From: an uncultured Actinomycetes bacterium
GTDB lineage: Bacteria; Actinomycetota; Thermoleophilia; Gaiellales; Gaiellaceae
Length of the DNA stretch: 64,000 nt
NCBI GenBank assembly: GCA_963802795.1
Contig: CAWDJV010000003.1
Location: 128,938 to 192,937, forward strand
Direction: 5' to 3'
The notes below the pieces were generated by a model. That model saw only the letters and a list, made by a program, of their open reading frames with translations. It had not been told where the DNA came from and did no database searches. This document shows positions 41,709-63,399 of the stretch, piece by piece (within the stretch, counting starts at the first letter, position 1; every line of letters starts with the position of its first letter). The position numbers were made by a program, and so were the translations under genes.

Positions 41709-41798
41709 CCGCTTCTCCTTGAGACTCTCCCCTAGCCGCACGACGGAAGTCTCGCCCTGCCGGCGGACGGCGCTCGGTGTCTGAGCAGGACTTCGAGC

Positions 41799-42673: not shown

Positions 42674-42678
42674 GCGGC

Positions 42679-42725
42679 CTGACGCGGGGTCACCGGGAGC
42701 TCACGCCTGGTGACCCCCGCGTCAG
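42679..42725. terminator. Long imperfect hairpin after the arsR-SRPBCC operon
   Basis: ctgacgcggggtcacc (42679-42694) pairs with ggtgacccccgcgtcag (42709-42725). 16 bp with a one-base bulge and a 14-nt loop. Confidence 0.45.
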
Positions 42726-42811
42726 CCAAGGGCCTATGGCTCCGGCTGGACGGTCCCGGCCGTTGGCCACGAGGCTTCCGGGCAAGCCGTAGGATCCGTG
42801 CACGATCGCGA

Positions 42812-44454: not shown

Positions 44455-44566
44455 GTGGAATCACCCACTCCGCCGGCCGGCGGAGGTTGGGTGGTTTCTC
44501 CGAAGTTGCGTCCTTCGCTTCGACCTACTGTCGGGCAGGAATGCTCAAACCGGCAGAGGAGAAGTG

Positions 44567-45773: not shown

Positions 45774-45821
45774 AGGTCATGCGCGTCGTCAGTACGACCC
45801 GCGGATTCGAGGAAAGATGGG

Positions 45822-45851
45822 CAAATGCAGCGCTTTCGGCGAGAGCGGACG
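45822..45851. repeat. Left direct repeat (att-like, partial tRNA-Gly 3' end copy)
   Basis: caaatgcagcgctttcggcgaGagcggacg versus caaatgcagcgctttcggcgaAagcggacg at 63162-63191. Weaker similarity extends ~8 nt on each side. Confidence 0.7.
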
Positions 45852-45863
45852 CTCGGGATCCAG

Positions 45864-46352
45864 TCAGCAGTCGCGCCCGATCCTTCTGCTGTAGCTCGCC
45901 ACTGACTGTGCGCCGGGCGAGGCGCCGAGCCAGTGGTAATGAGCAATCGCGCGGTATGCCCGAGTGCCGCAAAAGTAGCGCCCCTGGCCCACAGCTACAT
46001 CCTGAAAACCCCACCACCCGTCGTAGTCGTACCCCCAGGTCCTCTTGTACAAGACCCAACGACCATCGGCTCTCAACCACTGCAGCCGCACGTCGTGCAC
46101 GGCGACCGTGTATTCGGTGCCAAGGCCAGGAGGGTCGGAGACTTTGGCCTTTGCCCTGAGCCGGCCGGTCTTGTAGTTGTACTCGACCACCGCGCACCGG
46201 GCCACCTCGTAGCCGACGCAGCGATAGGTGCCGCCTACGTGAGTCCAGGCGTCGGCCGTCGACCTGGTCGTTGCTTCAGGCGAGGCACCGGCCGTGGTCG
46301 GCACCAGCAAGCTGGTCAGCGCGGCCGCCAATGCCGCCCCTGCGGTTCGCAT
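45864..46352 (-). CDS. Secreted hypothetical protein
   Basis: 162-aa ORF with signal peptide MRTAGAALAAALTSLLVPTTAGA. Trp/Tyr-rich mature part. Confidence 0.55.
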   Translation of the reverse strand: MRTAGAALAAALTSLLVPTTAGASPEATTRSTADAWTHVGGTYRCVGYEVARCAVVEYNYKTGRLRAKAKVSDPPGLGTEYTVAVHDVRLQWLRADGRWVLYKRTWGYDYDGWWGFQDVAVGQGRYFCGTRAYRAIAHYHWLGASPGAQSVASYSRRIGRDC

Positions 46353-46613
46353 CGAGCCGTGAAGTTGCCGTGCATCCCTACTCCGACTTGTCGTCGTTGG
46401 CGGCCCGCCTCGCTACTCTAGCCAAGTCAACTGTTGCCAGCGAAAGCGACTTCGCGCCGTACTCGGTGACGGAGACTAAGGAACGACCCTTGGAAGCGAC
46501 ACGGGACGAGTTGCGGGATCGTGGCGGCCCCACTGCTCGGGGCCGCGGTGAAGCACGCCACCCCCGATGCCGAGGCCGGCGAGGGTCAGACGCGCGCGCC
46601 GGGCTAGCGTAAG

Positions 46614-46635
46614 GCAAGTGATCGCGATCACTTGC
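46614..46635. promoter_or_regulatory. Perfect 22-bp palindrome (operator-like)
   Basis: gcaagtgatcg|cgatcacttgc is its own reverse complement. Located in the 538-bp divergent intergenic region 46353-46890. Confidence 0.4.
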
Positions 46636-46644
46636 ACGCCAAGC

Positions 46645-46686
46645 TCCCCTTTCCCCACACACAAATTCCCCTTTCCCCGCACACAA
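46645..46686. repeat. Two 20-nt direct repeats with 22-nt period
   Basis: tcccctttccccAcacacaa (46645-46664) and tcccctttccccGcacacaa (46667-46686), ~200 nt upstream of the DUF2339 gene. Confidence 0.6.
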
Positions 46687-46896
46687 CTTCCGCGGCTGTG
46701 GACAGCCAGGAGCGGAGGGAACAGAACGGCGGCCGTACGCCTGAAGGATCGATCCGGGGGCGTCCCCCCAGGGCGGATCGGGGCAGCCCCTGATGTGAGT
46801 ACCGTCCGGCCGGCCTAGCGTCCGTCATGCGTTTCATGCGGTGCTTGTATCGACCGCCACGTTAGGCGGATAATCGAGGTCAGGTAGGAGGTGTTG

Positions 46897-49800
46897 ATGA
46901 CCGACCGGCTCGACGAAGCGGAGCGCCAGCTCCGTGCCGGGGACATCGACGCGGCACTGCAGCTTCTCCAAAGCGCACGGCGGGCCGCGGGTACGCAGCG
47001 AGACACCACGCGCATGCGTGAGATCGTCGAGCTCGGCCAGCGCATCGAGGGCGAGGCTGTCGGCTTGGTCAAGAAGCAAGCCTCGCTCTTCCTCCTTGCG
47101 GCCAGGACTGACCTGCTGTTCGCGGAGAAGCAGGACGCGCTCGTCCGAGATCGGATCGAAGCGGGGCGCGCCGCCGTCGCTGCGGGCGACGCAGGCGTCT
47201 GCTCTTTCGCCCTCGAGGACGCTCTCGGCAGAGAGCTGGGGAAGATTCCGACGCGGCGGGACCGCGCGGCGCTGGTCGAGATCGTTGCGCTCGCGAACGC
47301 GATCTCGCCGCGCGCCCGAGGAAGGGTGCTGCGCCGTCTCACGAGGGTTCTGGCCGAGGCCGAGAAGGCCCTTGGCCACCTGCAGGTGGCCAAGCCTTCA
47401 GGCCCGCCCCTGGCCAGGACGCCCACAGCTCGAGCGCCTGCGCCGGACGCGCTCGCCGCCGACGCGGTGCTGACGGCGAAGCTCGACGCCTTCGAGCAGC
47501 ACATCCGGTCGCTCGAGTCGGCGCTCGCGGAGCTTCGAGAGAGGGAGCTTCCGGCGCTTCGGGCGCTCGCCGCAGGCGGCGGGCGGGCTGCGGCGCCCGC
47601 GCCGGTCGTCTCGGTGTCGACGGACGATGTGCAACCGCCGGTCCGCGGGTGGGCTCCTGCTCCCGACGTGCAGGTCGGGCCCGAGATCCCCGCACCGAAG
47701 CCTGCAGAGCCTCTACGGCCTCAGGCGGCGCCGAAGCCGGCCGGCGCTGCCCCGCGTCGCCCGCGTCCGGCGGTTCCGCAGGTCACGCTCGCGCAGCTGC
47801 AGGAGCCGCGCGCCCTCGCCTGGGCGGGAGGAATCGTGACCCTCCTCGGAATCGTCTTCATCTCGATTCTCGCGGCAGATCGTGGCTGGGTCAGCGCCGA
47901 GCTTCGAGTCGTCCTCGGTGCGCTCGTCTCCGCGGCGATCTACGGCGCCGGCGTTTTCGCGTACGGACGCTACGGCCGCACCTGGGCCGCTCTCGCCGCG
48001 GCTGGGGCGGGGATCGGGGGCGCGTACGCGACGCTCGCCGCCGCGGGCGCCGTCTACGACTTCATCGGGAAGCCGGAAGCCCTCCTCGGGGCCGCGTTCG
48101 TCGCGGCGGTCGGCGTGGTCACCGCGGTCCGGTGGAACACGCAGATGACCGCCATCCTCGGCCTGGTGGGCGCGATGCTCGGCCCCACGTTGATCGAAGG
48201 CGGCGTGAGCGTGGAGGGAAGCGCCTTCGTGACGATCGTCCTCGGCGCAACCGTCGCGCTCACGGTGTGGAAGCGCTGGCTCGAGACCATGGCGATCGGC
48301 GGCGTCGTCAGCTTTGCACTGGCTCTGGGCCTACTCGGGGAGCTGAGCCCGGGCGACGACACGGCCGCGGCGGTCGTGGCGGCCACGTACGCGCTGCTCT
48401 TCCTGGCGGCCGGAATCGGTCACGACCTCAGACCTCCTCGGCCGCTCCTCGGAGAGGAGATCGTGCCCGCCACAGTCGCGGCCTTCCTCGGGGCAGGGGC
48501 CCTGGTCCCGCTCGTTGTCGCGCTGCAGGTCGACCCCGGCTCGCCTGTCGGGGTCCCGGTGACCCTCGCGGCCGTATGGCTCGCGGAGCTCGCGATCGCG
48601 ATCGCGTACCAGCTCGTGCGCGGGGCGGCGAACCTGCAGCGCGTGGTGAGCACGCTCCTGTTCGCCGCGTCGGCGCTCTCGTTCGCGACGACGCTCCGGT
48701 TCTTCGAGGGTCGCGAGGAGGGCTACGCTCTCATCGCGAGCACCGTCGTCTACCTCGCGTGCCTCGCCCTCCTGCGGGGACGAGGTCAGCGGGACCTCTC
48801 GAGCGCGCTTTGGGCGGTGGCCCTCACCGCGACCGCGGTCGGCGTCGCCGACCTCGTCTCGGGAAACGAGCTCGCGCTTGTCTGGGCAGCGGAGGGTGCC
48901 CTGCTTTCGTGGCTCGGGCTGAGGGCGCGGGAGCCGCGGCTCCTGCTCGGCGCCCTCGGCTATCTAGGTCTTGCCCTCGGGCAGACACTCATCCTCTCGG
49001 CGCCGCCGACCGAGCTCATCGTCGCCAACGACGACCCTGCCGAAGGAGTCCCGGCGGTTCTCGCGACGGCGGCCGGGCTTATCGTCTTCGCAGCCTGCTA
49101 CTGGCGCGCCGGGCTCGACCGACTGAACGTCCGCGGAACCGTCGTGCCGCTTCCGTCGGCGTGGGTCGGATCTCTCTGCGCGGTTGCAGCTGCCTTCGCA
49201 CTGACGCTCTACGCCGCGTCGCTGGCGCTCCTGGGCCTCTTCACCTGGCTCGGGGACGACGACTTCCAGGCCGCCTTCGAGCGTGGCCATCCCGCCGTGA
49301 CCTCGCTCTGGGGCGTCGTCGCCCTGGCCCTGGTGGTAGTCGGCCTCCGGCGGCGCTCGTCCGTCCTCCACGCGACCGGGCTCGCGGTCTACGGAGTGGC
49401 CGTCGCCGAGCTCGTCCTCGTGGACCTTCCGACGCTGTCCTCGACGAACGCCGCCTTCGCCGCGCTCGCCCTCGGCGTGCTCGTGCTCGCCGCCGGCTTC
49501 GAGCAGGGCCGCCTTTCTCGTGCGACCGTCGAGGGCTTCGAGGTCGACCCGCTCGCGCTCGGCTTCATCGGCAGCAGCCTCATGTTCCTGGTGCCGGCGA
49601 TCGTCGTCCTCCTCGAAGGCACCACCTGGTCCGTCGACAGGCTGGGCGCCGGTCTCCTCGCGGCCGCCGCGGCCTACGGAGCCCTCGCAGCGCTCGTTTT
49701 CCGGGAGAACCGCGACTTCAGCACCGTGCTCTGGGCGCCGGCGTTCGCCCTCGGGGCCGCCGCCGTGCCCGAGCTGCTCGGCGATCCCTGGCGCGTGCTC

Positions 49801-50439
49801 GCGTGGTCGGCCGCCGGCGTCGCGCTTGCCTGGCTGGCGGGACGCGCTGGGGAGCCTCGGTTCCTGCCGGCCTCGGGAGCCTTCGTCGGCCTCGCGCTCG
49901 CGTATGCCCTCCTGCTCGAGGTTCCTCCGACGGATCTCTTCGTCGCCGAACTTCGGCCGGCGGCCGGCCTCCCGAGCCTCCTCCTGGCGACGGCCGCTGC
50001 GTACGCCTTCGCCGCATCCCTCGACAGGGTTCAACGGGCGACCGCGTTCTGGACGGCCGGAGCCGTCACCGTGTTCGCGGCCTCCGTTGCGATCGTCGGG
50101 CTGTTCCAGTGGCTCGCCGCCGACGACCCGAAGAGCGTCGACGACGCCTTCCAGCGCGGGCAGACCGGCGTGAGCGCGCTGTGGGCCGTCGTCGGCCTCG
50201 TGCTCCTCTCGATCGGCTTGTGGAAGGACTCGCGAAACGTTCGGATCGGCGGCCTCGTGCTCTTCGGAATCGCCCTCGCCAAGCTCTTCCTCTACGACCT
50301 CTCCGCTCTGAGCGCCATGGCGCGCGCTGTCTCGTTCCTCGGGGTCGGCCTCGTCCTCCTGCTCGCCGCATTCCTCTACCAGCGCGTGAGCGGCCGGGAC
50401 GACGAAGCCGAAAGCCCACCGAGACCGTCGATCCCATGA
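46897..50439 (+). CDS. Giant DUF2339-like polytopic membrane protein with cytoplasmic coiled-coil/Pro-rich N-terminus
   Basis: AGGAGG at 46886-46891, then ATG 46897 (GTG 46891 is also possible). ~300-aa soluble N-terminal region, then >25 predicted hydrophobic helices in repeated blocks. One uninterrupted frame of ~1180 codons. Confidence 0.8.
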   Translation: MTDRLDEAERQLRAGDIDAALQLLQSARRAAGTQRDTTRMREIVELGQRIEGEAVGLVKKQASLFLLAARTDLLFAEKQDALVRDRIEAGRAAVAAGDAGVCSFALEDALGRELGKIPTRRDRAALVEIVALANAISPRARGRVLRRLTRVLAEAEKALGHLQVAKPSGPPLARTPTARAPAPDALAADAVLTAKLDAFEQHIRSLESALAELRERELPALRALAAGGGRAAAPAPVVSVSTDDVQPPVRGWAPAPDVQVGPEIPAPKPAEPLRPQAAPKPAGAAPRRPRPAVPQVTLAQLQEPRALAWAGGIVTLLGIVFISILAADRGWVSAELRVVLGALVSAAIYGAGVFAYGRYGRTWAALAAAGAGIGGAYATLAAAGAVYDFIGKPEALLGAAFVAAVGVVTAVRWNTQMTAILGLVGAMLGPTLIEGGVSVEGSAFVTIVLGATVALTVWKRWLETMAIGGVVSFALALGLLGELSPGDDTAAAVVAATYALLFLAAGIGHDLRPPRPLLGEEIVPATVAAFLGAGALVPLVVALQVDPGSPVGVPVTLAAVWLAELAIAIAYQLVRGAANLQRVVSTLLFAASALSFATTLRFFEGREEGYALIASTVVYLACLALLRGRGQRDLSSALWAVALTATAVGVADLVSGNELALVWAAEGALLSWLGLRAREPRLLLGALGYLGLALGQTLILSAPPTELIVANDDPAEGVPAVLATAAGLIVFAACYWRAGLDRLNVRGTVVPLPSAWVGSLCAVAAAFALTLYAASLALLGLFTWLGDDDFQAAFERGHPAVTSLWGVVALALVVVGLRRRSSVLHATGLAVYGVAVAELVLVDLPTLSSTNAAFAALALGVLVLAAGFEQGRLSRATVEGFEVDPLALGFIGSSLMFLVPAIVVLLEGTTWSVDRLGAGLLAAAAAYGALAALVFRENRDFSTVLWAPAFALGAAAVPELLGDPWRVLAWSAAGVALAWLAGRAGEPRFLPASGAFVGLALAYALLLEVPPTDLFVAELRPAAGLPSLLLATAAAYAFAASLDRVQRATAFWTAGAVTVFAASVAIVGLFQWLAADDPKSVDDAFQRGQTGVSALWAVVGLVLLSIGLWKDSRNVRIGGLVLFGIALAKLFLYDLSALSAMARAVSFLGVGLVLLLAAFLYQRVSGRDDEAESPPRPSIP

Positions 50440-51185
50440 AGCCGGAACGAGCCATCGCCGCCTGCCTTTCGGCGCTCGCCGCCGGCCTCGTCGCGCTCCT
50501 CCTGTTCGGGCCGACCGAGGGCGCGGAGGCCAAAGAGGAATCTCAGGAGGCAACGGCGACCGCTCCCGAGCCCCAGACGACGGCGGAGATCGAGACCGAG
50601 CCGGTCACCACGACCGAGACCGAGCCGGTCACCACCACGGAGGCCGAGCCGGTCACCACCACGGAGGCCGAGCCGCCGCCCTTCCTGCCCGGCGACGGCA
50701 CGTTCCCCGGGCCCGTCAGGCTCTTCCTGTTCTACCAGTCCGAGGTGAAGTGGAGGACGCACGAGCTCCCGAGCAAGGCGTCGGAGGTAACCATCGAGGC
50801 GAGGGCGACCTCCCTTCGGGGCCAGGCGGGCGACGTCCACGGTGTCGAGTGCACGCTCGACCGCCGGACGACGTACACGTTCTACGTCGACCTCTGGAGC
50901 GAACGGTACACGCTCGAGCGGACGAAGATCAAGACGACGGAGTACCTTCAGCGCGGCGAGGCGCCGAGCCTGCTCGCCCCCACGCGGCCAAATGTCCTGA
51001 GCCTCACGTGTGAATCACGGCGGCAGGGGACGATGCTGAGCCTCCGCGCGAACGGCGAGCCGCTCACGGCCTTCCTCGACCGCGGGAGCTCCGGCCGCTT
51101 CAGCGCCGTGAGCCTGGCCGCATGGAGCCCGGCGGGTGATCACACGGTCGTCTTCGACGGCGTCGTCGTCCAGACGAATCCCTAA
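50436..51185 (+). CDS. Secreted protein with EPVTTTE repeats and a beta-rich C-terminal domain
   Basis: The ATG overlaps the upstream stop (ATGA at 50436-50439). Signal/anchor AIAACLSALAAGLVALLLF, three EPVTTTE repeats, then a ~170-aa globular part. This is the last 249 codons of ORF 47649-51185. Confidence 0.7.
   Translation: MKPERAIAACLSALAAGLVALLLFGPTEGAEAKEESQEATATAPEPQTTAEIETEPVTTTETEPVTTTEAEPVTTTEAEPPPFLPGDGTFPGPVRLFLFYQSEVKWRTHELPSKASEVTIEARATSLRGQAGDVHGVECTLDRRTTYTFYVDLWSERYTLERTKIKTTEYLQRGEAPSLLAPTRPNVLSLTCESRRQGTMLSLRANGEPLTAFLDRGSSGRFSAVSLAAWSPAGDHTVVFDGVVVQTNP
50592..50675 (+). repeat. 24-nt in-frame tandem repeat (3.5 units)
   Basis: gagaccgagccggtcaccacgacc / gagaccgagccggtcaccaccacg / gaggccgagccggtcaccaccacg / gaggccgagccg. 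Confidence 0.85.
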
Positions 51186-51539
51186 GCGGTCCCGTCGCTC
51201 GTGGGCGACCCCGACCCGGAACGCAGCCGCGTCGGGCCACGCCTCGGGCGCCGGCAAGCCGGGGCGAGCCCGCCAGTTGAGAGCGGTCGAGGACCTGCTC
51301 CCGTAGGCCGCAGAGGCTCCCGGAGACCCAGAGCGCCAACAGCCCTGGTACGTGGACCGCGCGACCGCCGACGAGCGTCGCGAGAACGGAGCCGGCGTGG
51401 CGGGTTGACCTCGTTCCCGACGCCCCACTGGAAGTTCGACGCCGAGAACCACGAGGCGAGACAGACCGAGGGCGGTACTCGCGATCGAGTCGCGCCCGCC
51501 GTCGACGCTCACGTGTGTTGTCTCGTAGGTCGACTGTGT

Positions 51540-51980
51540 CTATCGCCGACGGATCCCGCGAGAGCTGACGACCCCTTCGATCTCGGCTGCCGCGACTGCC
51601 GTGGTCCTCGTGTTCCCAGACGCGGATAACCGTCCAGCCTGCAGCGGCGAGCTGCGCAGTCGCGTGTCCCTATCGCGGCGCTGGTTCGCCTCGATCTTCT
51701 GTCGCCACCAAGCGGCGTTCGCCTTCGGCCAAGTGCCGTGCTCAGGACAGCCGTGCCAGTAGCAGCCGTCGCAGAAGACAGCGACCTTGCGACGCGGGAA
51801 GACGATGTCCGCTCGTCTGCGGACCGTAGGGAGGGGTGGAAAATCGACGCGGTAGCGAAGCCCACGTCGGTGTAGCTCGCGGCGAAGAGCGACCTCGGCC
51901 GGCGTGTCGCGCTGCGGCGTGTTCTGCATCCGCCGCCTAGTCTCGGGCGCCGGCGCGACTGGAACTCGAGGCACGGCCAC
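51540..51980 (-). pseudogene. vsr: Very-short-patch repair endonuclease (Vsr) with two compensating frame changes
   Basis: TPAEVALRRELHRRGLRYRV, ADIVFPRRKVAVFCDGCYWHGCPEHG, WWRQKIEANQRRDR are in the ORF frame. The hallmark AQLAAAGWTVIRVWEHED is only in another frame, between ~51670 and ~51602. Confidence 0.75.
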
Positions 51981-51989
51981 CTCTCCAGG

Positions 51990-53233
51990 CTACGCGGCCG
52001 CGGCGGACATCGCCGTCGTAGCGATCTCAAGGGCGAGAACGTGACACCGTTCGCGGAGCTGGTCGACCGGTGTCGTCACGTCGACGGTCTCGACGCGGAG
52101 CCGCGGACCGCCGCGGACTACGCGATGCAGGCTCGGGCCGCTCGGCTTCTCGGCGTAGAGGAGGAGCCCTTCGTCTAGTCCGGTCGCGGAGCAGTAGGCG
52201 AGCAGCTGGTAGAGGTCGCCGACCTCGCCCTGCTCGCGTCGCCTTGTACTTCGCGTCGCCGACAAAAACGCAGCGGAGCCGCGCCAGAGCGAGAGGTCGG
52301 GTTCGGGTCGGACGCGGCTCGTCCTCGTCGAGGGCGACGGACTTTCCCTGTCGCCAGCGGTAGTTCGGCGGGAGAATGCCGCGGAGCTCGTCGCCGATCG
52401 CCGCCGAGACGAAGTCCTCGAACACGTCGTTCATGTCGAACAGGATCGAGCTCGTCGAAGCCGCACCCGGGTGGGAGCTCGACCGAGTGTTCGGACGAGG
52501 AGCGCGGCGAGCTCGAGCGCGGGTCGATACCGCTCGTCGAGCCGGGTGTACGTGAACGTCGGGAGTCGCCGCGGATCGGAAGCGCACATCGGTCACACTT
52601 CCGTCGAAGCCGTGAGCGCCTCCGCCGTCCTCCGTCGCAGGCGCGCGGTCGCGGAGTCGCAGACGCTCGATCCTCCGCAAGCCGCCTTGACGAGGCGGTT
52701 GGCCTCCGTGTCTACGGTGTGGTCGTCGTAGCCGACCTCGACCGGGAGGGGGAGGCCGTAGCGCCGCCGCAGCTGCTCGGCGAAGCGAACGCGGCCGCGG
52801 ACGGTCGGAAGTGCTCCTCGCGCGAGACGTAGCTCATCGGCAGGCCGCGACGCAGCGCGCCGTTGGAGTCGTCGAGGAACATCGTGACGAACGGCTCCAC
52901 GATCCCCTTGCGCGCGGCGAGCGTCGTCGGTGCCGCGAAGCGGAGCCTGCGAGCGTAGCCGAGGAGGAAGAAGACGCGGTCGATCGCGAGCTTCGGTTCG
53001 ATGACGACATGCAGCCGGCACGTCGTCGCCGCGCCCACGATGCTCGACGGCGTGACGACGTACCGCCCGCGATCGGGCTGGATCGTCAGCTTCGCGGGGA
53101 CGCCTGGAGCTCCGTGAGCTCCTGGGCGTCGAGCGCGAGCTCACTCGGCTTCCACTCCTGAAGCCGGATCGCTCTGCGCGATCGTCGACCTCCTCGCCAG
53201 CTTCGGGCTGTGCGCGCCGGCCGCGCGGTTCAC
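51990..53233 (-). pseudogene. McrC-like restriction subunit (multiple frame changes)
   Basis: GTG 53233 overlaps the McrB-like stop (GTGA). Blocks: IRLQEWKPSELALDAQELTEL; IVGAATTCRLHVVIEPKLAIDRVFFLLGYA; RGRVRFAEQLRRRYGLPLPVEVGYDDHTVDTEANRLVKAA; FDMNDVFEDFV; VFVGDAKYK; DLYQLLAYCSATGLDEGLLLYAE. They are spread over three frames. Confidence 0.7.
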
Positions 53234-55179
53234 GCGTGCTCGATTGCGGCGAGCGTGAACTCCTCACGCGGTCGGGCTCGTCGAAGAACTGCTCCTCGAT
53301 GTACGGCAGGATCGAGTGCGCCCAGATCCGCTCGAGCCACTGCCTCGGTCAAGGCCTGGCGCATGAAGTGGCTCGGTCCGATCTGCAGGTGTCGGTCGGG
53401 CGAGCATGCGTTCGCGGCGTCGACAACATCGGCGACGTAGACCATCGTCGGGCGCGTGTCGCTGTAAGCCACCGCCGCAGCAAGCCCTCGACGGGCGGCC
53501 GGTCCGGGAAGAAGTCGACGAAGTGGAAGCGGCGGCGCAGCGCCGCGTCGAGGAGCGCGATCGACCGGTCGGCGGTGTTCATCGTCGCCGATCAGATCAG
53601 AGGTTCTCCGGCAGCTCGAACGGCTCCGACCCGTACTGGAGCTCGATCTTCGTCGTCGCCGGTACTCGAGCAGGTAGTAGAGCTCGCCGAAGACCTTGGC
53701 GATGTTGCCGCGGTTGATCTCGTCGATGAGCAGCACGCAGGGCTCCGCCGACTCCTCGGCGATCTTCCGCCAGTTCGGCGCAGCGGACCCGGCCGTGAGC
53801 TCGAACGGACGTTCCCGTCGTCGCCCTCGCGCGGCCGGTAGCCCTCGACGAAGTCCTCGTAGCGTATAGACGGGATGGAACTGGACGGTCTTCCGGTGCT
53901 GGTCGTCGGGGGCGAGGAACCGGGCGAGCCGCCGAGCGACGTACGTCTTCCCCGTGCCGGGCGGGCCGTAGAAGATCATCTGCCGCTTGTCCTCCAGGAG
54001 CTCGAGGACGCGTCGCAGCCACTCCGCGTGAAGGAGCAGCTCGTCGGCCACCTCGCTCGACAGAGCCGTCCTCGGGGATCAGCTCCGTCCTCGTCCTCTC
54101 TCTGCTTCAGGAGCCACCAGAGGAAGACCATCGCGCCCCACGAGTCGTCTGCGTAGTAGGGCTCGAGGAGATCGCTGGAGGACGTCGTTGGACTCCTTCG
54201 CGAGCTGCGCCCGCGACTTGCCCCGCTCGTCCAGAGGCTCGACCGGCAGCTCGGGGAGCCGCATCACCGCGCGCTTGCCGTTCTCGCCGCGGTAGACGAA
54301 CAGCGGCACCCACCGGTCGGGGTAGACGATCGCGAGGCACTTCGTCGCCAGCGCCTCGCCGAACCCGCGCACCTTCCACTCCGGGTTGTCGAGTACGTCG
54401 TCGAGGCGGTCGCTCTCGTCGCCGGGGCCGTAGAGGAGGTGTCGGATCGTACGAGCGAGCGGGGCGATCGCCTCCGGCCCGGCACTCAGGTAGGGGTTGA
54501 TCTGCCCCTGATTGCCTGCGCCGCCGTAGGCGTTCGAGGCGATCCGGCGGAAGGCGGGGAGGTCGAACGTCTCCGGGTCCGCGATAGCGGCGTCGAGCGA
54601 TTCCTGCGCGAGCACGGGCAGCAGTTCCTCCCGCGCCGCAATCTGATCCTTGTCGTGTTGCCGTCGGGTAGCCCAGCTCTCGCTTGCAGCGCTCGATCAG
54701 CGCGCGAGACGAGTCGGCGTCGCGCCCGCCGCGCCGGCTCGTCGTACCGCGACCTCTGGGATACCACTCGCGGACCTTCGTCTCCAGCTCGCTTCCCTCC
54801 GGTAGCGATCAGCGTGGCGATCTCCCACCCTGGTCGACGTCGACGAAGATCGCCGCGGCGCCGATGTTCGTGCCCGGTCCGGTGAGCCGAGCCACCTTCT
54901 CGGCGGCGCGCTCCAGGTGCGCGTCGTTCGACAGGAGGATCGCGACGAGGTCGGGCTGCTGGTTGACGATACCGCCCTCGCCGAGACGGTTCTCGACGAC
55001 GCCGGCGTCATCGACGACCTTCGCGCGAACCTTCGTCGGCGTCGAGTCCGAGCAGCTCGGCGAGCCGGCGGTCGACCGGCCTCAGCCGGTTCGCGTTTTG
55101 AGGCGGTCCGGCGAGACGTCGCTCCCGGATGATCCGGTCGAGCTCGTCCGGAACGGCCGACGGCTGCCGACGGCCGCAT
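53230..55179 (-). pseudogene. McrB-like AAA+ GTPase with a long N-terminal region (multiple frame changes)
   Basis: ATG 55179. C-terminal motor blocks: QMIFYGPPGTGKTYVARRLA; VQFHP; VLLIDEINRGNIAKVFGELYYLLEYR; MNTADRSIALLDAALRRRFHFVDFFPD. The N-terminal ~350 aa (DELDRIIRER...; DAGVVENRLGEGGIVNQQPDLVAILLSNDAHLERAAEK...; AQESLDAAIADPETFDL...DNPEWKVRGFGEALATKCLAIVYPDRWVP) are of unknown fold. Confidence 0.7.
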
Positions 55180-55203
55180 CGTAGGGTGAATCTCGGGTGC
55201 TGT

Positions 55204-56421
55204 CTAAGCGGCGGCCTGCTCGCGAATCGAGCGGAGATGCGCCTCGACCGCATCGAGAAGAGCCCATCGGGGAACCGCGAACGTCGAATCCGCCGTGCGG
55301 CGCAGGAAGCCGGCCGTCGCGCGCTCCGACAGACGGCTTCAGTCGGGAAGCGGAGGAAGCCGGCGAGGTTCTGATAGGGAGCTCGAACGGGCCACCGCGA
55401 CACGGCACGCGGTAGGTTCCCGAGTCGTCGCCCCACGCTGCACGAGGCCACGGCGATCCGCTCGCGAAGGTCGTCATGGAGCGACTCGTCGTAAGGGCGC
55501 GGATCGCGGAGGCGTCGCCCGACCCACTCGGAGACAGGGACGCTCACGGCGTTGCCGACGAGCTTCCAGCGGCGCCCTCACCTCGCTTTCCCTCCTGCCG
55601 CGGGAGCCGTCCAGTCGGCGTTCGAACCCCTGCAGCCGCTCGGCGTCGCGGATGTCGGGCGTGCCGATCGATGCCGTCCGGCATCCAGATCGCCGGCGGC
55701 GAAGGGATGCCGATCGTCGAGCCGCCCTTCAGCGTCGGCACGCCATCCACCGCCCATCCGAGGCCGCGGATCCCCTCGGTCCAATAGAAGCCGCAGCGCG
55801 ATCCGCGTGTCGGCGGCTCGGGCTCGCCCGTCGTCCCCGTGAAACAGGACTCGCCGGGATCGTCCGTACCGCGACGCGAGCAGGATCACACGCTGCCGAC
55901 GCTGCGGAAGCCCGAAGCCCGCGCGTCGACCACTCGGTACGCCCAGCGGAAGCCGAGCTCACCCAGTCGCCGGGCGAGGTACCGCATCGCATCGACCGCG
56001 GTCGAGTTGGAGCATGAAAGGGACGTTCTCGAGCAGCAGCCAGCGCGGCTCGCGCTCCGCTCGCTCAAGCAGCTCGAACACGGGCTCCACGAGCCCGGAG
56101 TTCGTCCTTCGATACCGGCCGTGCGTCCCGCCTGGCTGAGGTCCTGACACGGAAATCCGGCCGCGACGAGGTCGCAGTCGGGGAAGCGAGTCGAGCGTCC
56201 GAATATCGCGCGCAAGCGGAATCGATGGAAAGCGGAAGCGGAGAACCGCAGCGGCGGCATCATCGATTTCGCACAGCAGCGTCCGACGAGTGCCCTGCGC
56301 GGTGAAGCCCAGCCTCGATCCCACCGATTCCGGCAAAAGAGCCCGACGACGCGGAGCGGAGACTGCACCGAATCGGAAAAGCTGCGACCTGGGTCGCGGT
56401 GATCACCTGGGAAGGACTCAT
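55204..56421 (-). pseudogene. dcm: DNA cytosine-5 methyltransferase (about nine frame changes)
   Basis: Ordered m5C-MTase motifs across three frames: FAGIGG (I), GFPCQDLSQAG (IV), LLLENVPFM (VI), FGLPQRRQRVILLA (VIII), TPDIRDAERLQGF, GNAVSVPVSEWVG (X). The ATG at 56421 overlaps the recombinase-remnant stop. Confidence 0.8.
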
Positions 56422-56779
56422 CGCCACGATCCAGTTTCGAGAGTGCGGCGGATGGCACCGTCGGACCGGGAGTCGGCAGGGAAGCGAAGTCGCTTGACCG
56501 CTCCGCGCAACTCGTGCGCGGTGTGACGCGCGTGTAGCGCTGGTTGGAGTCGAGGTGTTGTGTCCGAGCAGCTCCTGGATCTGGCGCAGGTTCGCTCCTG
56601 CGCGCAGCAACTCGGAAGCGAACACGTGGCGGAGTGTGTGCGGCGTCTCGCCTTCCGCACCTCAGCAGACGCCGCGACAGGCCTGCTACGGAAAGAGCCC
56701 TGGTAACGGGGCCTTCCGGACCACCATACGAGCGCTTCCACGCATGGAGATCCGTTGGCCGCGGTTGGCCGTCGTCCGC
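56418..56779 (-). pseudogene. Tyrosine recombinase/integrase C-terminal remnant
   Basis: Box II region [29 protein letters not shown]...[19 protein letters not shown] is read across two or three frames. No N-terminal SAM-like or core-binding part was found. The 5' limit is approximate. Confidence 0.65.
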
Positions 56780-57403
56780 GGGCGGCGGGTATCGAGCAGA
56801 CCGCGGTCACGAGCCCAGTTGCGCGCGCGCCCGGCGATCCGCGCGAAGTCGGCGTCCCAGGCCTTCACCCGCTCCGGATGGAACGGCCCGAGCTTGCCCT
56901 GCGGCCACGAACCGAGATAGCTGTAGTGGTGGATGATGACGGTCTCTGGAAGGGGCGGGATCAGCCGCTTCGTGACAAGGTGATCGAGTGGAGCGGGGTT
57001 TCTTCCCCCGAGGATGACGACGAGTTCGGAGAGCCGTTTCGAGTCAAAGCGCAGCACGGGCGCCCAGCTTCGGCAACGGCAAACTGGACTTCATCCGCGG
57101 TCGTCTTCCAGTCCTTCACTCGGTACGACGACTTGATCACGTCGGTGATATAGCAGCGCCATCCTCCCGGCCTGAACGCGGCCGCCGGACTTGAAGCCGT
57201 GCTTTGCGAGCATTTCGCGGAAGAGCTTGTCGCCGGGGCTCGATGGTCCACTGCGTCTCGTTGTCTGTAGGTTGTTCGAAGCTGTCTCGAGGCGGCTGAG
57301 GCTCGGCGACTCGGCGATAAACCAAACAGGGCGCGAATGGGTCACCGAGGTAGCCGGTCATCCCACGGGTGTTCGTCCCGTCGATCCGGGAGGCGAGGCT
57401 CAT
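56780..57403 (-). pseudogene. Uracil-DNA-glycosylase-superfamily-like protein with atypical motifs (frame changes; 3' limit approximate)
   Basis: ATG 57403. Blocks: VWFIAESPSLS (position of UDG motif A GEAPG); GDKLFREMLAKHGF; CYITDVIKSSYRVKDW; VIIHHYSYLGSWPQG (position of motif B HPS...). Assignment is by pattern only. Confidence 0.4.
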
Positions 57404-57478
57404 CTCGATATGCGGCGTCGGCGCGTCGTTCGAGCTCCGCGAAAAAGGACGCGTGGTCGGCGGTGACTGGGCGCTGCA

Positions 57479-58834
57479 TCAGACCTTGACGGTCTCGAGG
57501 TGCTCGAGCAGGCGCGCGTGCGCCTCCCACCCGTCGAACTCGACCTGGCGCGTCACGCCCAGTTCGTAGTCGGAGGGCGGCGCGTGATCCTCGAGCAGCT
57601 GCCCGGCGCCGGCGCGGCCGACGACGACGCACGCGTGACGGTGTCGCGTGGTGAGCACGGCGGCGCGACCGGCGTCGAGGTGGAAGGCCGTCGCGTCACG
57701 ACGACCGGCGAGCGGATGCCAGACGAGAACGACGTCGAACTCGCGACCCTGCAGGCGGTTCGCGGTGTCGACGACGACCTCGCCCAGGTCACGGCGCTGC
57801 AACTCGACCGAAACGGCCGCGCGCTGGTTGCGATGGCTGACGCCGACGGCGACGCGAGAGTGGATGAAGGCGCGACGGTCTTGCCCGCGTTCTTCTCGTC
57901 GCGCACCGTTGGCTTCGAGTCGAAGAGACCCTGCACCAGGTCGCCGAGCGCGACGACGATCTCGCGGTCAGGCTGGATGACGAGCCGGTGCGGAAGCTCG
58001 AGGTACGCCCAGCCATCGGCGGCTGCAGCGCGCCAGACCTCGGCCGCAGGGCCACCGCGAAGGGAACGGACGCGCAGCGCGAGCTCGCGATCGCCGTCCT
58101 CGCTACCAGGGCCGAAGTCGAGATCGGGATAGAAGACCTCGCGGATCACGCCAGCGGCGCTGACCGGCAGTCGTCGCGTCACGGGGAGCGCGCGAACCGG
58201 AACGTCGTCGCCGCGGTACGCGAGCAGGGCGTCGACGGCGTTCAGCACGGGGTTGACCGCAAGGCCGCGCCAGCGCGCATCGTCGACGGTGGAGAACGGG
58301 TCGAGCTGGCCAGGATCGCCGAGGAAGTCGAGCGCCGGGAAGAGATCGGCGATGCGCAGGAGCTTCGCCGACTGCATCTGATAGCCCTCGTCGACGACCC
58401 CGGCGTCGAACCGCCCGTCTGGAATGTGGGCAGCGCTGAACGCCCACTTGTCGGCGGTGGCGACGATGACCTTCGCCGAGCCGAGGTTCTTCGCGTCGAC
58501 GATCGTGACGTTCGGCAGATGCTTGTCGGGCGGCAGCACGACGCGCGCTCGCGCGGAAGGAAGGAGATCTCGCGCTTCGGCGCGATCGCCGCGATCCGAC
58601 CGACGAGGTCGAACGCCTGCTCGTTCGTCTGGGCGATCACTCCGACGTGCGCGTCGTCGTCGGCGAGCGCATCGACGAGCCGCGTCACCGCGCCGGTCTT
58701 GCCGGCACCGGCCGGCGCCTTCGTGAGGCGCGCGCGCTCGCCGCCGCGCCTTCGCCGCCTCGATCAGGTCGTCGACGACGGCATCGGCGGCCGCGAGAGC
58801 CTCGGCGCCCGAAAGGACCGTCGAGACTGCTCAT
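57479..58834 (-). pseudogene. SF1 (RecD/Upf1-like) helicase, at least four frame changes
   Basis: The ATG at 58834 overlaps the upstream stop (ATGA). Walker A APAGAGKTGAV; motif II VVDEGYQM; motif III LGDPGQL; C-terminal VDTANRLQGREFDVVLV...LTTRHRHACVVVG. Confidence 0.7.
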
Positions 58835-60427
58835 ACCGCCGTCGTCTCCATCGCCGCCGCCTGAGTGACGTCGACGAGCGTGTCGAGCGCGGGCCCGTCG
58901 TCGAGCTCGGCGCTGTCGTCGGCGCGGCTCCTCGCCGACGGCGTGTGCGTCCAGGGCGTCGCCCGCGGTAGCGGCGCGCTCAGCGACCAGCCGATCCGGA
59001 GGCGTGGAAGATGCTGAAGCAGGCGCGGTCGCCGTGACTCGGGGAGCTCGCCGCGCATTCCCTCGACGACCTTCAGGACGACCGTTGCGCCGCCCGGACG
59101 CCGAGGGCACCGCCGACTCGACGAGCACGCGCAGCTTCTGCCGATCCGTCCACCACAGCTCCGTGCCGATCGGGAAACGGGCACGGGTCCGCGATGGCGA
59201 GCGTGATCAGCGGCCGCGCAGTCATCGACTTCCCGGACGGGCCGAGCTCGCGGTTGTCGGTGTCGACGTTGATGACGTCGCCGACGATCGCCTGGCCCTC
59301 GACTGATCGCTGCGAGCAGCGCGTACTCGTCCTCGAGCACCTGCGCGGCCTCGTAGCGTGCCTGTGCCGCCTCCCAGTCGTCGAGCACGAGCGCCGCCCG
59401 GCGCGCGGAGTCGATCGGACGCTCGACGTCCGCCTCTCGCGATGTAGTCGGCGTGCCGAGTGAAGTCGCGCAAGATCGTCGTCCCAGCGCGTCGCCACCG
59501 ACGGCGCCTCCGGCAGTTCGGCGAGGATGTCGCGGGCGATCCAGAGCGCTTCCCAGGTCGGCATCGAGACACGGACGCAGCAGCTCGCGCATCTCTCCGC
59601 CGAGCTTCTCGACGACGCGCGGGATCGACCGAGCCGGCACGCTTGGCGTTGAACCGCGCGACCGCCTCGATCAGCGGGCCGTTGTCGACCTGCGGATCGG
59701 TGAGGACGCTCATCGGGCACGCCCTCGATCAGCGCTGCCGCCTCGGCGCCGTGCATCGAGTCGAGGTCGACGCCGTTGCACGCGCTCGGAGCGATCTCGG
59801 CGAGGTAGGCCGGGGTCGAACCATGCGAGCTGTGCGCCGAGGTGAGCATCCTCGAAGCTCGACTGGCCGGTCACGAAGTGGTTTGCGAGTTCGCGGGTCG
59901 CGACCACCGTGAGGGCGGAGCCGGCCGACGCGCCTGCTCGGCGTAGAAGCCGAGATGCGCACCCGCGACGTTCACCTCAGGCGGCACTTCGATGTGGCCG
60001 CCGTAGCCGGCCGGACGCATCCGCCGACCGAGCCGGTCGAGCAAGCGCGACCACCGCTTCGTTCGCGACGAGCAGCTGGGGAGCCCTGCGGACGCGCGTG
60101 TAGTGCTTGCCCGTTCTTCGTCTGGAAGTGGTCGCGCGGCGCACCGGCAGCGGCATCGACGGCGTCGCAGACGATCTTCGCCAGCTTGCGCCATCGCGCC
60201 GAACGCGATGCCCGGCGTGCGGGGCTCGGGCGCGACGATCAGCGTCGGCTTCGCCGCGCGAGGTGCCGACGAGCGCGCCCCAGACCGCGTGCGACTCGAT
60301 CGACATCTGCATCGCGGCGATCGCAATCGGCTTCGGCTCGAGATGCACGTGGCGGAGCACCCGCCTGCGCTGAGCGCGACCCGACTCGGCGGCGTGTCGC
60401 GGCGATCAGCAGATCGACCGCGTTCAT
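58831..60427 (-). pseudogene. Unknown ~530-aa protein (middle gene of the nuclease-X-helicase trio), many frame changes
   Basis: ATG 60427 directly follows the upstream TAG. Protein-like blocks in three frames: HVHLEPKPIAIAAMQMSIESHAVWGALVG; KPTLIVAPEPRTPGIAFGAMAQ; LLDRLGRRMRPAGYGGHIEVPPEVNVAGAHLGFYAEQ; TRELANHFVTGQSSFEDAHLGAQLAWFDP; MPTWEALWIARDILAELPEAP; IDSARRAALVLDDWEAAQARYEAAQVLEDEYALL; SVEGQAIVGDVINVDTDNRELGPSGKSM. No family recognised. Confidence 0.5.
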
Positions 60428-61608
60428 CTAGGCGCAGCCTCCTTCGGCGCGCAGCCTCGGCGGATCCGTCGGCAGCGCGGCCTCGATCGAGCAGCCGAGC
60501 GGCGCGCAGCAGGTGGTCGGCGATGTCCTCCTCGGCACTGTCGGGCGGCGCGCCGTTGGCGAGCTCGAGCGCGCGCCCGATGCTGCGGACAGAGCCGAGA
60601 TCGAGGCCGGCGCACGCCGGGTTGCCGGAGACGCGGGCGGTCTCGCGGCAGTGGAGCGCGAGCGGGCAGTATGCTGAGGCAGGACGGCTCGTAGTGCGTG
60701 CCGAGCGTGTCGAGTACCTCGGCGATGTGCCCGGCGGCGTCCTCGTCGTTCATGCCGGTGGTGTCGAGGGTCACGCCGGGCGGCAGAGCCGCGAGGATCG
60801 TCGGGATGGTCGCGCGGCGGGCGAGCATGCGGCGCAGCGTGCGCACCTGCCGCGAGACGTCGATCTTCTCGACGGTCGGGACGAGCGAGGTGTTCTTCGC
60901 ACAGACGAGCAGCACCTCGGTCGAGACGACGCTCGGGTCGAGCCCCTCGGCCTCGAGCAGGTCGACCAGCGCGGCGACATAGACCGCGGTCTGCCACGCC
61001 GCCCCGCCGACCTTCTCCGGGTCGGCGCGACCGTCGACGACCGGGAAGCTCTTGATCTCGACTACGCGGATCTGGTCGCCGATCCGCCAGGCGATGCCGT
61101 CGGCCTCGAGACGCGCGATCGCGCCGCCGAAGTCCCACTGAAGTGCGCCGCCGTCGATCAGGTTGTACGCGTCCGTCCTCGCCCTGGGCCATGGCGATGA
61201 TCGCGTTCTTCGTCTCGGCGGCGCGCTTCGCGAGGGCGATCGACGGATCGCGCGGGTTGATCGGATAGAGCTCACGCAGCGGCAGGACGCGCACCGCCTC
61301 GACGGGATAGCCGACCTCGCGCAGCAGGCGGATCAGCTCGGCGTAGTTGTCGTCCTTGACGAGGCGCTCGAAGCGATTCCCGCGCTGCAGAGCGAACTTC
61401 GACTGCTCCTCGGGCACCGGGCGGCCGAGCCGCGCTGCGAGCGCGGCCTTGTCGACACCGGCGGCGTCGAGCACGCGGCGTGCGTTGCACGCCGGGTTGG
61501 TAGCGAATCGCTGCAAGCGTGCGCGCGTTCGGGAGCTTCATCCGGGAGTGGGCCGCGAAGAGCAGCGAGACCGGCCGTGACCGGATCAGGCCCGCCCTTG
61601 CGCACCAC
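60428..61608 (-). pseudogene. Cas4/RecB-like PD-(D/E)xK nuclease with Cys cluster (frame changes; start approximate)
   Basis: GAGGAGG, 7 nt, then GTG near 61608-61611. Blocks: FATNPACNARRVL; FALQRGNRFERLV; LEADGIAWRIGDQIRVVEIKSFP (D...ExK); AAWQTAVYVAAL (QxxxY); C-terminal EPSCLS..CPLALHC. One N-terminal plus three C-terminal Cys is the Cas4/AddB Fe-S pattern. Confidence 0.55.
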
Positions 61609-61910
61609 TACGCGTCCTCCTCAATACCCTTGAAGACCTTCAACGCAACCTTCACGAAGAACCCTCTTCTCCCGTTGTTTCCTCGGCCTGCTCGGCGACC
61701 CAGGCTCAAGATCTGAATGACAGACGACCGACCGAGGGTCATCCTCTCACTCTCTCTTCGGCTAGCCGGCGTGCATGCTTTAGGCCTGCTGAGACCACAC
61801 CTCAGTGGGTTCGGCGCAGGGGGATGTGTCTTGGGGTTCTCGAGGGGCTTCGCGTTGAGGGCGCAGACGTCGGGCTGGTCTGAGAGCGCCCCAACCCTTC
61901 GTCGGTCGGC

Positions 61911-62153
61911 CTAGCGGGGCGACCCGACAGGCTCGAGCCCGTGCTCTCGGACGACGTGCTCGGGCACGACGAACGGGTACGCCCAGCCTTGGGCGTTCTG
62001 ATGCCGGGGCGTCGGCTTTGCGAGACGCTCCTTCCAGAGCTCGACGATGCTCGCCGCCCACAGCGTGCCAGCGAGGCCGTGCTCGTCCAGGTAGGCGCGA
62101 ACGTCGGCGGCGGTCGGGCGGCCTCTTGGGTGGCACAGTGAGCCGAAGTGCGT
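61911..62153 (-). CDS. Open frame with strong G/C third-position bias but no canonical start (possible small-gene remnant)
   Basis: RPTAADVRAYLDEHGLAGTLWAASIVELWKERLAKPTPRHQNAQGWAYPFVVPEHVVREHGLEPVGSPR-stop. The nearest GTG (62136) is in another frame. Confidence 0.25.
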   Translation of the reverse strand, partial: THFGSLCHPRGRPTAADVRAYLDEHGLAGTLWAASIVELWKERLAKPTPRHQNAQGWAYPFVVPEHVVREHGLEPVGSPR

Positions 62154-62820
62154 TCAGTTGCGGGTATCGAGAGCTACTGGTCGCACTCCGCGGAGGCGTC
62201 GAGGAACACAGCACGGGCCTGACCTTCTTGCGCACATATTGGTACGACGGCGCGCGGGACGGGATCCCGACGACTGATCACAGACTCATCGCAGGCCTTC
62301 CGTACGTCAAAGTCAGACTCGGGCGACTAACGAAGCGCGGACAGCAAAGGGTGTCGATGGACTCATCTACCGCGATCTAACCGCTTTCGCGCGCGTCGGC
62401 GCTCGAGCGCGCGTACCTGTTCACCGGCGACGGGGACCTTCGCGAGAAGCGTCGTGACGGCCCAGGACCTTGGGCGTTCAGGTCGTCCTCATGAGCCTGC
62501 CCCAACCCGTCAGACGGGCCGGTGAGCCGCCCGTGGTCGCGAGGTCGACGAGGTCATCGTGCTCGAGCGCCGTTTTGGGAGGCCTCACTGCTCGAGGCGG
62601 AGGCCGTCGGCACTTGATCGGAGCATCGGTGCCGCCCGAGAGCGCAGCCCTGGAGGCCTGTGCACAGGCATTCGGGGCAGGTAGGGCGGCCGACGCCACG
62701 ACGGACGAGGTCCTTGAGCTGCTGAACAAGGAACCCGAGGTGCCGAAAGACATCTACGTCCAGCTCGTTCTAGCCGCGGAGACGTCGGTCGGCTTTTTGC
62801 GGTCCGCATCCCGCTGCTAA
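62150..62820 (+). pseudogene. NYN/LabA-like domain protein fragment (frame changes, N-terminus not found)
   Basis: LTFLRTYWYDGARDG...LPYVKVRLGRLTKRGQQ, then in other frames KGVDGLIYRDL...AYLFTGDGDL...AQDLGVQVVLMS, and a C-terminal tail ending at 62820. Confidence 0.45.
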
Positions 62821-63161
62821 AGGCGAATTGCGGAGCGCGTTCTGGACCGCGCTCAAGCGCGAGACCGAGGACCAAGCGGGTCGGCGGCGTCGAATTGTCT
62901 TCCGAGGAAGGCTCGGAAGGCGAATGAAAGCGTCATGGAGCGTGCGCCTCAGGGATTCGCGCAAGATTGGCACGCCACGAGCGTTACCGACCACCATCCA
63001 CTATAGCCATGGGGCGTGACGCCGCCCTCTCTCGGCGGTAGCACGGGTTCGAGTCCGAATGCCCACTCTGGACGTCCGGAGATGGACGTCGCTCATACGT
63101 TTGCTGCCCTTGCGCTGCCCGCTGGGCGAGGGATCTCAGCTATCGGTGTCTCGAAGCTGGC

Positions 63162-63191
63162 CAAATGCAGCGCTTTCGGCGAAAGCGGACG
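63162..63191. repeat. Right direct repeat (att-like) overlapping the tRNA-Gly 3' end
   Basis: Identical to 45822-45851 except for 1 nt. Positions 63184-63191 are the discriminator plus the 3' acceptor strand of the tRNA. Confidence 0.7.
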
Positions 63192-63256
63192 ACGGGGCTC
63201 GAACCCGCGACCCTTGGCTTGGGAAGCCAATGCTCTACCAGCTGAGCTACGTCCGC
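63184..63256 (-). tRNA. tRNA-Gly (anticodon CCC)
   Basis: The reverse complement folds as a cloverleaf: GCGGACG-TA-GCTC-AGCTGGTA-GAGC-A-TTGGC-TTCCCAA-GCCAA-GGGTC-GCGGG-TTCGAGC-CCCGT-CGTCCGC-T. 73 nt, with CCA not encoded. Confidence 0.9.
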
Positions 63257-63399
63257 CTGGCGCGCCAACGATACCACCGCCCGGCGTCCACCCTGGCAGC
63301 GCAAAGGGCGGCTGCCACAAAGCCGCGCTCGCCTCAGGGTCCTAGTGCCTCGCGCCCGGCGATGGAATACTTCTCTGGGAAATCCGGAGAGGAGTTGGG

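Follow-up and report, generated by a model that had tools for sequence, protein, structure and literature searches.

Several integrative elements of Actinomycetota, among them pSAM2/SLP1-type elements and mycobacteriophage L5, rely on a tyrosine integrase whose target is the 3′ part of a tRNA gene. The identity segments of such attachment (att) sites are tens of nucleotides long and can extend past the tRNA 3′ end. Islander (Hudson, Lau, and Williams 2015; PMC4383910) describes genomic islands integrated into tRNA genes (tDNAs), with crossover sublocations at the anticodon loop, the T loop, and the 3′ end or T-acceptor junction. Here we describe a locus of this kind next to tRNA-Gly(CCC) in an uncultured member of the Gaiellaceae. 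The window, i.e. the whole stretch of DNA that was analysed, is 64,000 nucleotides (nt) long and comes from contig CAWDJV010000003.1 of assembly GCA_963802795.1. This genome (G000) is a 3.0-Mb metagenome-assembled genome (MAG) in seven contigs, and it was compared with twenty-nine further genomes of its genus (thirty in the collection). Window positions 42.68–63.18 kb are a layered, immobilised, and largely pseudogenised island downstream of tRNA-Gly(CCC), a conclusion common to all three of the serious readings weighed below. Inside it lies a direct repeat of 38–41 nt, and we regard it as about an even call that this is the attL/attR scar of the island’s youngest layer (45.85–63.15 kb) at the tRNA 3′-end sublocation.

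The repeat and the tRNA gene that it touches are placed as follows.

45814–45851, plus strand: distal repeat copy, 8 nt of the tRNA-Gly acceptor 3′ strand and 30 nt of trailer, between two convergent gene ends
63154–63191, plus strand: tRNA-proximal repeat copy, found by blastn and by repeat search
63184–63256, minus strand: tRNA-Gly(CCC), single copy in the genome (Rfam, 70.6 bits; 63183–63257 by ARAGORN)

The core of the repeat is a 30-mer, CAAATGCAGCGCTTTCGGCGARAGCGGACG, with two plus-strand copies (45822–45851 and 63162–63191) that are identical at 29/30 positions, the sole mismatch falling at the R position. Alignment with blastn widens the repeat to the coordinates listed above (38 nt, 92 per cent identity), and by eye it can be followed over 41 nt (37/41 identical), the longest exact stretch being 21 nt. 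It was the sole long two-copy direct repeat to stand out in the region (family D6 of the repeat search). Two matches to the 30-mer were seen in none of 100 dinucleotide-preserving shuffles, and a scan of the whole 3.0-Mb assembly tolerating up to three mismatches returned two copies only. A third, degraded copy was sought across the window, as well as at the outer edge (42.7 kb) and near a recombinase stump (56.3–56.9 kb), and none was found; the next-best 30-mer match (19/30) was at noise level. There was no residual similarity beyond the repeat edges on either side (z about 0). Scanning GTDB species representatives, IMG/VR, and JGI metagenome contigs located the 30-mer only in three relatives that carry the segment T1 (see below), and never on a viral contig. 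We considered a strong terminator formed by a hairpin in the repeat and rejected it, as the predicted structures are weak. An initial annotation, made from the window sequence, had reported the 30-nt repeat at 45822 and 63162 with one mismatch, had described the right copy as spanning the discriminator, the 3′ acceptor strand, and some 22 nt downstream, and had proposed the genome-wide search; both copies were re-found, the tRNA coordinates agree with its description, and the search gave the two-copy result above.

Position and orientation are what connect the repeat to integration. It overlaps the final 8 nt of tRNA-Gly (the acceptor 3′ strand CGTCCGC and the discriminator T) and continues for about 22–33 nt into the trailer. 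Its tRNA-side edge is the first nucleotide of the acceptor 3′ strand, i.e. the T-stem/acceptor junction, and so coincides with one of the crossover sublocations already recognised, that of the T/acceptor junction or asymmetric 3′ end. The displaced 3′ fragment lies downstream of the tRNA, in the correct orientation and on the correct side for an att scar, and beyond the distal copy there is a different, older cargo module, as the flank of attR would have.

In the explanation that we favour, an element with a tyrosine integrase would have used the ‘asymmetric 3′ end’ sublocation of the tRNA-Gly gene. The crossover would have fallen at the T-stem/acceptor junction or beyond it, with identity reaching about 30 nt into the trailer. 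The tRNA-proximal arm of the element would be T1, which bears a relic tRNA-Glu, and an older layer with LuxR and monooxygenase genes (42.8–45.8 kb) would already have stood beside the tRNA when the element landed. The integrase would then have been lost, and a McrBC/Dcm block, a helicase–nuclease trio, and a Xer-like gene would have decayed by frameshifts, with a DUF2339 gene pair kept intact. We infer both the origin of the repeat by site-specific recombination and the element origin of T1.

Comparison with relatives places the limits of the island outside the repeat copies. The aldolase side of tRNA-Gly(CCC) (window position 63358 onwards) adjoins homologues of about 39.75–41.77 kb in G005, G006, G011, G012, G014, G016, and G020; seven genomes have the 40164–41771 homologue beside the tRNA. 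At that tRNA-Gly junction the ArsR and AHSA1-like genes (41.80–42.68 kb) are present too in G016 and G023, and eight relatives in all have a homologue of 39.7–42.7 kb as the downstream neighbour of the tRNA. Because the tRNA of relatives adjoins homologues of 39.7–41.8 kb, or of sequence up to 42.68 kb, the non-ancestral block is about 42.68–63.18 kb, or roughly 20.5 kb and not 17.3 kb. The 17.3-kb island of the initial annotation is too short by this measure, and what it took as the left flank is itself mobile cargo. Near-empty sites in G006 and G012 join tRNA-Gly to the homologue of 40.2–41.8 kb, not of 45.8 kb; the distance from the tRNA 3′ end to detectable neighbour homology is 128 nt in G012 and about 400 nt in G006. 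The content between the repeat copies is absent at this locus from all twenty-nine other genomes of the genus. That is in line with the accessory character assigned to these genes by the initial annotation, and no relative carries the same 17 kb in conserved synteny.

The outer part of the block consists of a junction and a cargo module.

42678–42803, no strand: left edge of the non-ancestral block, a 126-nt junction behind the AHSA1-like gene with a long terminator-like hairpin and without an att-like repeat
42804–45773, plus strand: LuxR/TPR regulator and FAD-dependent monooxygenase (LuxR-FMO) module, frame-disrupted in G000; the older, distal layer

Homology to G016 and G023 stops at 42671–42677, and homology of the LuxR-FMO module begins at 42804 or 42839. 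Where the ancestral DNA ends, directly behind the AHSA1-like gene (42680–42730), is a long perfect GC-rich inverted repeat (CTGACGCGGGGTCACC ... GGTGACCCCCGCGTCAG) that is probably a terminator. The open reading frames (ORFs) of the module in the window have no Pfam match and only C-terminal NCBIfam matches; an intact copy in G014 (L004:792–3771) has GerE, TPR, and FAD_binding_3 matches. The module is present on other contigs in G013, G022, G020, G014, and G011 (L003, L004, L005, L006, L007), lying 6–8 nt past tRNA-Thr(TGT) in G013 and G022 and 0.6–5 kb beyond tRNA-Ala(CGC) in G020 and G014. Since its identity between G000 and G013 is 94.5 per cent, compared with about 84 per cent for the adjacent core gene, LuxR-FMO is a recently exchanged mobile cargo module that moves among islands at tRNA-Thr(TGT), tRNA-Ala(CGC), and tRNA-Gly(CCC). 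The module is frame-disrupted in G013 as well, but differently from G000. Two other identities were considered for this stretch. A 397-amino acid (aa) ORF beside the distal repeat (44580–45773) is not the missing integrase, being the C-terminal two-thirds of the FAD monooxygenase. The lack of Pfam matches had also raised the possibility that 42.8–45.8 kb was rRNA or another structured RNA, which was ruled out: Rfam detects tRNA only, and the G014 copy encodes two clear proteins.

Between the repeat copies, the recognisable content is as follows.

45864–46352, minus strand: 162-aa ORF with no Pfam match, followed by 0.5 kb of lower-GC intergenic DNA
46888–51185, plus strand: intact gene pair, a DUF2339 membrane protein of about 1180 aa (PF10101, E = 7e-59) followed by a 250-aa repeat protein
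52027–54051, minus strand: McrC-like gene (PF10117 in two pieces and frames, one internal TGA) and McrB-like AAA_5 ATPase gene (PF07728, partial AAA_5)
55886–56458, minus strand: C-5 cytosine DNA methylase fragments in two frames
56491–56661, minus strand: XerC/D-like tyrosine recombinase stump, the C-terminal ~60 aa in three frames, gene body deleted
57497–61552, minus strand: trio of a helicase (AAA_12), an unknown gene, and a nuclease-like gene, each split between frames -1 and -2 (tblastn)

The first of these lies in a segment (45852–46844; GC 0.661) that is unique to G000, with no homologue in the genus. The DUF2339 pair has host-like codon usage and is the only intact, host-like portion of the block; its downstream repeat protein contains 24-nt (8-aa) tandem repeats at 50568–50675. 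At the DNA level, the DUF2339 module is 77 per cent identical to sequence in G023:C2 (L023 10019–14086) and 72 per cent identical to sequence in G015:C5 (L024 9682–12435). Most members of the genus have a DUF2339 paralogue of about 70 per cent elsewhere, and G000 seems to be without such a paralogue.

In the remainder of the block (51.2–63.0 kb), every recognisable gene is broken, and 63 per cent of positions are without a host-like coding signal, compared with 8–21 per cent in 42 kb of core sequence. The weak host-like signal of 51.2–63.1 kb may reflect decay and not foreign origin. The frame breaks occur only in the accessory block, where a 3.5-kb ORF has nevertheless stayed intact, as have all the flanking core genes; this pattern argues for real decay over uniform sequencing error.

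The recombinase stump matches positions 120–162 of PF00589 at 56542–56661 on the minus strand (37.9 bits, E = 2.7e-9), which bears out the C-terminal remnant that the initial annotation had placed at 56.4–56.8 kb. The intact gene closest to it, at 82 per cent DNA identity, is XerC/D-like, encodes 300 aa, and lies in G041:C548. A tblastn search of the window with the integrase-like ORFs of relatives gave no match. The helicase trio has an intact, collinear counterpart of three genes on a plasmid of Streptomyces genisteinicus (NZ_CP060826.1, 3582–7542; L030) and may be an uncharacterised defence module. On Streptomyces and Nonomuraea replicons the module is collinear and intact, with an AAA/helicase of 433 aa and hypothetical proteins of 502 and 377 aa. 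A PADLOC scan of the broken ORFs found nothing diagnostic, and the intact pair of McrB-like GTPase and McrC-like nuclease genes that marks a McrBC or LlaJI-type module is not present in the block. Raw tblastx comparison of the island with relatives gave only high-GC noise and was discarded.

tRNA-Gly(CCC) is a hot spot at which elements have integrated repeatedly in this genus. Compared in eleven fetched relatives, the gene is 100 per cent identical in ten and 95.9 per cent identical in G013, and at least four unrelated trailer types are found behind it across the genus. A 45-nt copy of the tRNA-Gly 3′ half (anticodon stem to 3′ end) recurs in relatives at varied distances from the full gene:

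G016: 45-nt 3′-half copy, 1.1 kb from the full gene
G005: 45-nt 3′-half copy, 4.5 kb from the full gene
G023: split 31+18-nt fragment, 6.9 kb from the full gene
G013: 45-nt 3′-half copy, 11.7 kb from the full gene
G038: 45-nt 3′-half copy, 15 kb from the full gene

Tyrosine-recombinase-like ORFs are found in G013, G023, and G005. Because the 3′-half copies are 45 nt long and stand at various distances, the canonical att at tRNA-Gly(CCC) in this genus is the 45-nt block. We searched the window for such a 45-nt fragment, or another tRNA fragment, as the ‘true’ att, and there was none besides the relic tRNA-Glu.

Other repeated sequences were seen near this tRNA in relatives. A dispersed repeat of ~170 nt, resembling a miniature inverted-repeat transposable element, stands just upstream of tRNA-Gly in G006 (L010 15419–15600) and near tRNA-Gly in G014; it has seventeen blastn hits across the contigs of G000, none within the window. 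A 1.1-kb segment, 91–92 per cent identical across genomes, occurs in the zone downstream of tRNA-Gly in G014 (L009 3526–4613) and G020 (L011 8893–10017). In G000 this segment, which is probably a small mobile element, is at a different locus (C3:327944–329032).

The DNA next to the tRNA includes T1 (63030–63183, 150 nt), which holds the proximal repeat copy and is conserved in three relatives.

63018–63067, plus strand: relic tRNA-Glu(CTC), the 3′ two-thirds (positions about 22–73), convergent with tRNA-Gly and 116 nt away from it, T-stem and acceptor broken
63068–63183, no strand: 116-nt spacer, which forms T1 with the relic tRNA-Glu
T1 in G022: 88–91 per cent identity, adjoining the full tRNA-Gly
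T1 in G005: 79 per cent identity, adjoining the full tRNA-Gly
T1 in G013: 90–92 per cent identity, adjoining the 45-nt tRNA fragment

The relic, which ARAGORN missed, is 97 per cent identical over 35 nt to a functional tRNA-Glu(CTC) on contig C1. In G013, G022, and G005, homology to the window halts exactly at the tRNA-Glu att core GGTAGCAC, and beyond that core lies the end of a family of tRNA-Glu-specific elements that G000 likewise carries on contigs C1 and C3. The repeats of the tRNA-Glu(CTC) elements in G000 comprise 32 nt of tRNA and about 57 nt of trailer; it is thus normal in this lineage for an att block to extend well into the trailer. Their sites are C1:5708–5739 and 10322–10394 and C3:16632–16663 and 17599–17633 (L025, L026). 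There are three partial tRNA-Glu copies of 32–35 nt; in two of them the repeat runs about 57 nt into the trailer and includes the CCCCTGCTAAGC hairpin, and beside each is a conserved element end of ~300 nt with a small ORF.

T1 has the look of a mobile segment. Its identity (88–92 per cent) exceeds that of the adjacent aldolase (FBA) gene (about 84 per cent). On an FBA tree, which represents one gene, the T1-bearing genomes are not a clade, with G013 and G022 nested among genomes without T1. In G005, T1 is found within a 4.5-kb segment that is bounded by the 45-nt repeat and lies close to the ancestral flank. In the window, the rest of T1 adjoins the proximal repeat copy and not the distal copy. 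This excludes insertion into a pre-existing tRNA/T1 junction, and the repeat fits site-specific integration only if T1 is the incoming element’s own arm. The higher conservation of T1, the scatter of T1-bearing genomes on the tree, the setting of T1 in G005, and the repeat edge at a known crossover sublocation all favour such an arm.

Several observations weigh against an attL/attR scar. An empty site, in which tRNA-Gly is joined to the sequence left of 45822, was looked for as the initial annotation had proposed and was not found among the twenty-nine other genomes of the genus; nor does the older layer carry a repeat at its outer edge (42.68–42.80 kb). The elements seen at tRNA-Gly in relatives are bounded by the 45-nt repeat, from anticodon loop to 3′ end, and not by the 30-mer block. 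G013, G022, and G005 each have T1 with a single 30-mer copy (up to three mismatches; the G022 genome is 93 per cent complete), therefore T1 is not accompanied by a second repeat as a rule. There is no intact integrase within the block and none able to make the scar, the sole recombinase trace being the Xer-like stump, 6.5 kb from the tRNA. The GC content of the region (0.695) is close to that of the genome (0.702), and its tetranucleotide distance is within the null range. Finally, the DUF2339 module occurs at a different locus in G023, G015, and G001, and in G023 it follows a core region; because the block is a mosaic with this host-like module found elsewhere, the 17.3 kb is hardly a single element as it stands.

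The attL/attR layout proposed by the initial annotation thus stands in part. It agrees with the orientation of the repeat, with its edge at a crossover sublocation, and with the accessory DNA between the copies; it is at odds with the missing empty site, the 45-nt repeat of the relatives’ islands, and the location of the proximal copy inside T1. The suggestion of an old, immobilised, or composite element was broadly right, the content being mosaic and broken with no working integrase. The proposed check of GC and codon usage had a divided result, with GC and tetranucleotides not distinctive and 63 per cent of 51.2–63.1 kb without host-like coding signal.

Alternatives to a scar differ mainly in what they take the distal copy to be. 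We think it somewhat unlikely that the distal 41-mer is the trimmed relic of an older junction between a tRNA fragment and T1 in a tandem array. Two successive T1-armed elements would have entered via the 45-nt core, and later deletions would have taken the second integrase, shortened the tRNA fragment by 37 nt, and erased the bulk of the older T1, so that the repeat would mark a former layer boundary and not a recombination core. G013 has such an internal junction, with T1 directly following the 45-nt tRNA fragment, and all dated islands at tRNA-Gly use the 45-nt core. The heavy decay of the region, with many indels and an internally deleted Xer gene, fits this history too, and tandem arrays at tDNAs are known from the literature. 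However, two independent deletions would have had to spare a clean 41 nt between them, and one would have had to end precisely where T-stem and acceptor meet; neither the missing 37 nt nor any further T1 sequence has left a trace. A chance match or an assembly artefact, which the MAG status of the genome might bring to mind, is very improbable: the shuffles, the 29/30 match, and its sharp edges all speak against it, an exact stretch of at most 21 nt is too little to mislead an assembler, and both copies stand in well-defined, differing contexts that are each confirmed by homology to relatives.

It is also unlikely that T1 is a native neighbour of tRNA-Gly and that there was no integration at the tRNA-Gly 3′ end in G000. 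In that case a 20-kb block would have entered at or over the convergent tRNA-Glu, truncating it at position about 22 and carrying in the distal 41-mer, which could be an unrecombined attP-like site or flanking DNA from aberrant excision in a T1-bearing donor. The proximal copy, flanked by T1 and the tRNA, does resemble an unoccupied attB, and three relatives pair T1 with a single 30-mer. Likewise, T1 identity follows the same order as the flanking gene (G013 > G022 > G005), and the homology break exactly at the core GGTAGCAC shows that the relic tRNA-Glu is itself a recombination site. Against these points stand the scattered T1-bearing genomes on the single-gene FBA tree and the enclosure of T1 in G005 between 45-nt tRNA-Gly repeats near the ancestral flank, and an unrecombined attP 17 kb from attB is unparsimonious. 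The boldest reading supposes an undescribed family of integrative elements in the Gaiellales, aimed at the extreme 3′ end of tRNA-Gly(CCC), with T1 as its arm and with a decoy tRNA-Glu(CTC) fragment that offers a landing pad to a second, tRNA-Glu-specific family. We consider this quite improbable. If it were true, islands would nest and relay between tRNA specificities, and this would account for the difference between G013, G022, and G005, where the relic tRNA-Glu is occupied, and G000, where it is unoccupied.

For annotation, 42.7–63.2 kb is best treated as a patchwork of decayed, horizontally acquired DNA, and its restriction, helicase, and recombinase genes should not be taken for functional ones. 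The recurrent use of tRNA-Gly(CCC) and tRNA-Glu(CTC) as integration sites in this uncultured Gaiellaceae genus is background for mapping mobile elements in soil actinobacteria.

Set beside known systems, the locus is closest to an Islander-type island. It shares with these an intact tRNA gene and a displaced same-orientation 3′ fragment downstream, with accessory cargo between them, as well as a crossover edge at the T-stem/acceptor junction; the locus is reused in related genomes, and layering in tandem has precedents among such islands. In its repeat, orientation, sublocation, and size the locus agrees with Islander expectations; it departs from them in the integrase and in the exact empty site. 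Of the repeat, just 8 nt belong to the tRNA here, so that the match is mainly one of trailer sequence. There is no integrase gene inside, so the island would fail the Islander integrase filter, and it is a mosaic with host-like genes and with GC and tetranucleotide values that do not stand out. The pattern of pSAM2/SLP1-type elements and L5 is shown by the relatives G013, G016, and G005 (45 nt), in contrast to the block in our window. Degraded defence islands (McrBC/LlaJI-like with Dcm, or helicase–nuclease) share with it the McrB-like AAA_5, McrC, and C-5 methylase genes and the trio of helicase, unknown, and nuclease genes. Here every such gene is frame-split or truncated, and no defence function is expected for that reason. 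The region is most likely not an active integrative element; it is a familiar tDNA-linked genomic island, late in its decay, from a lineage that has received little study. It is an ordinary remnant of the traffic of mobile elements at a tRNA hot spot and leaves the current understanding of tRNA-linked islands unchallenged.

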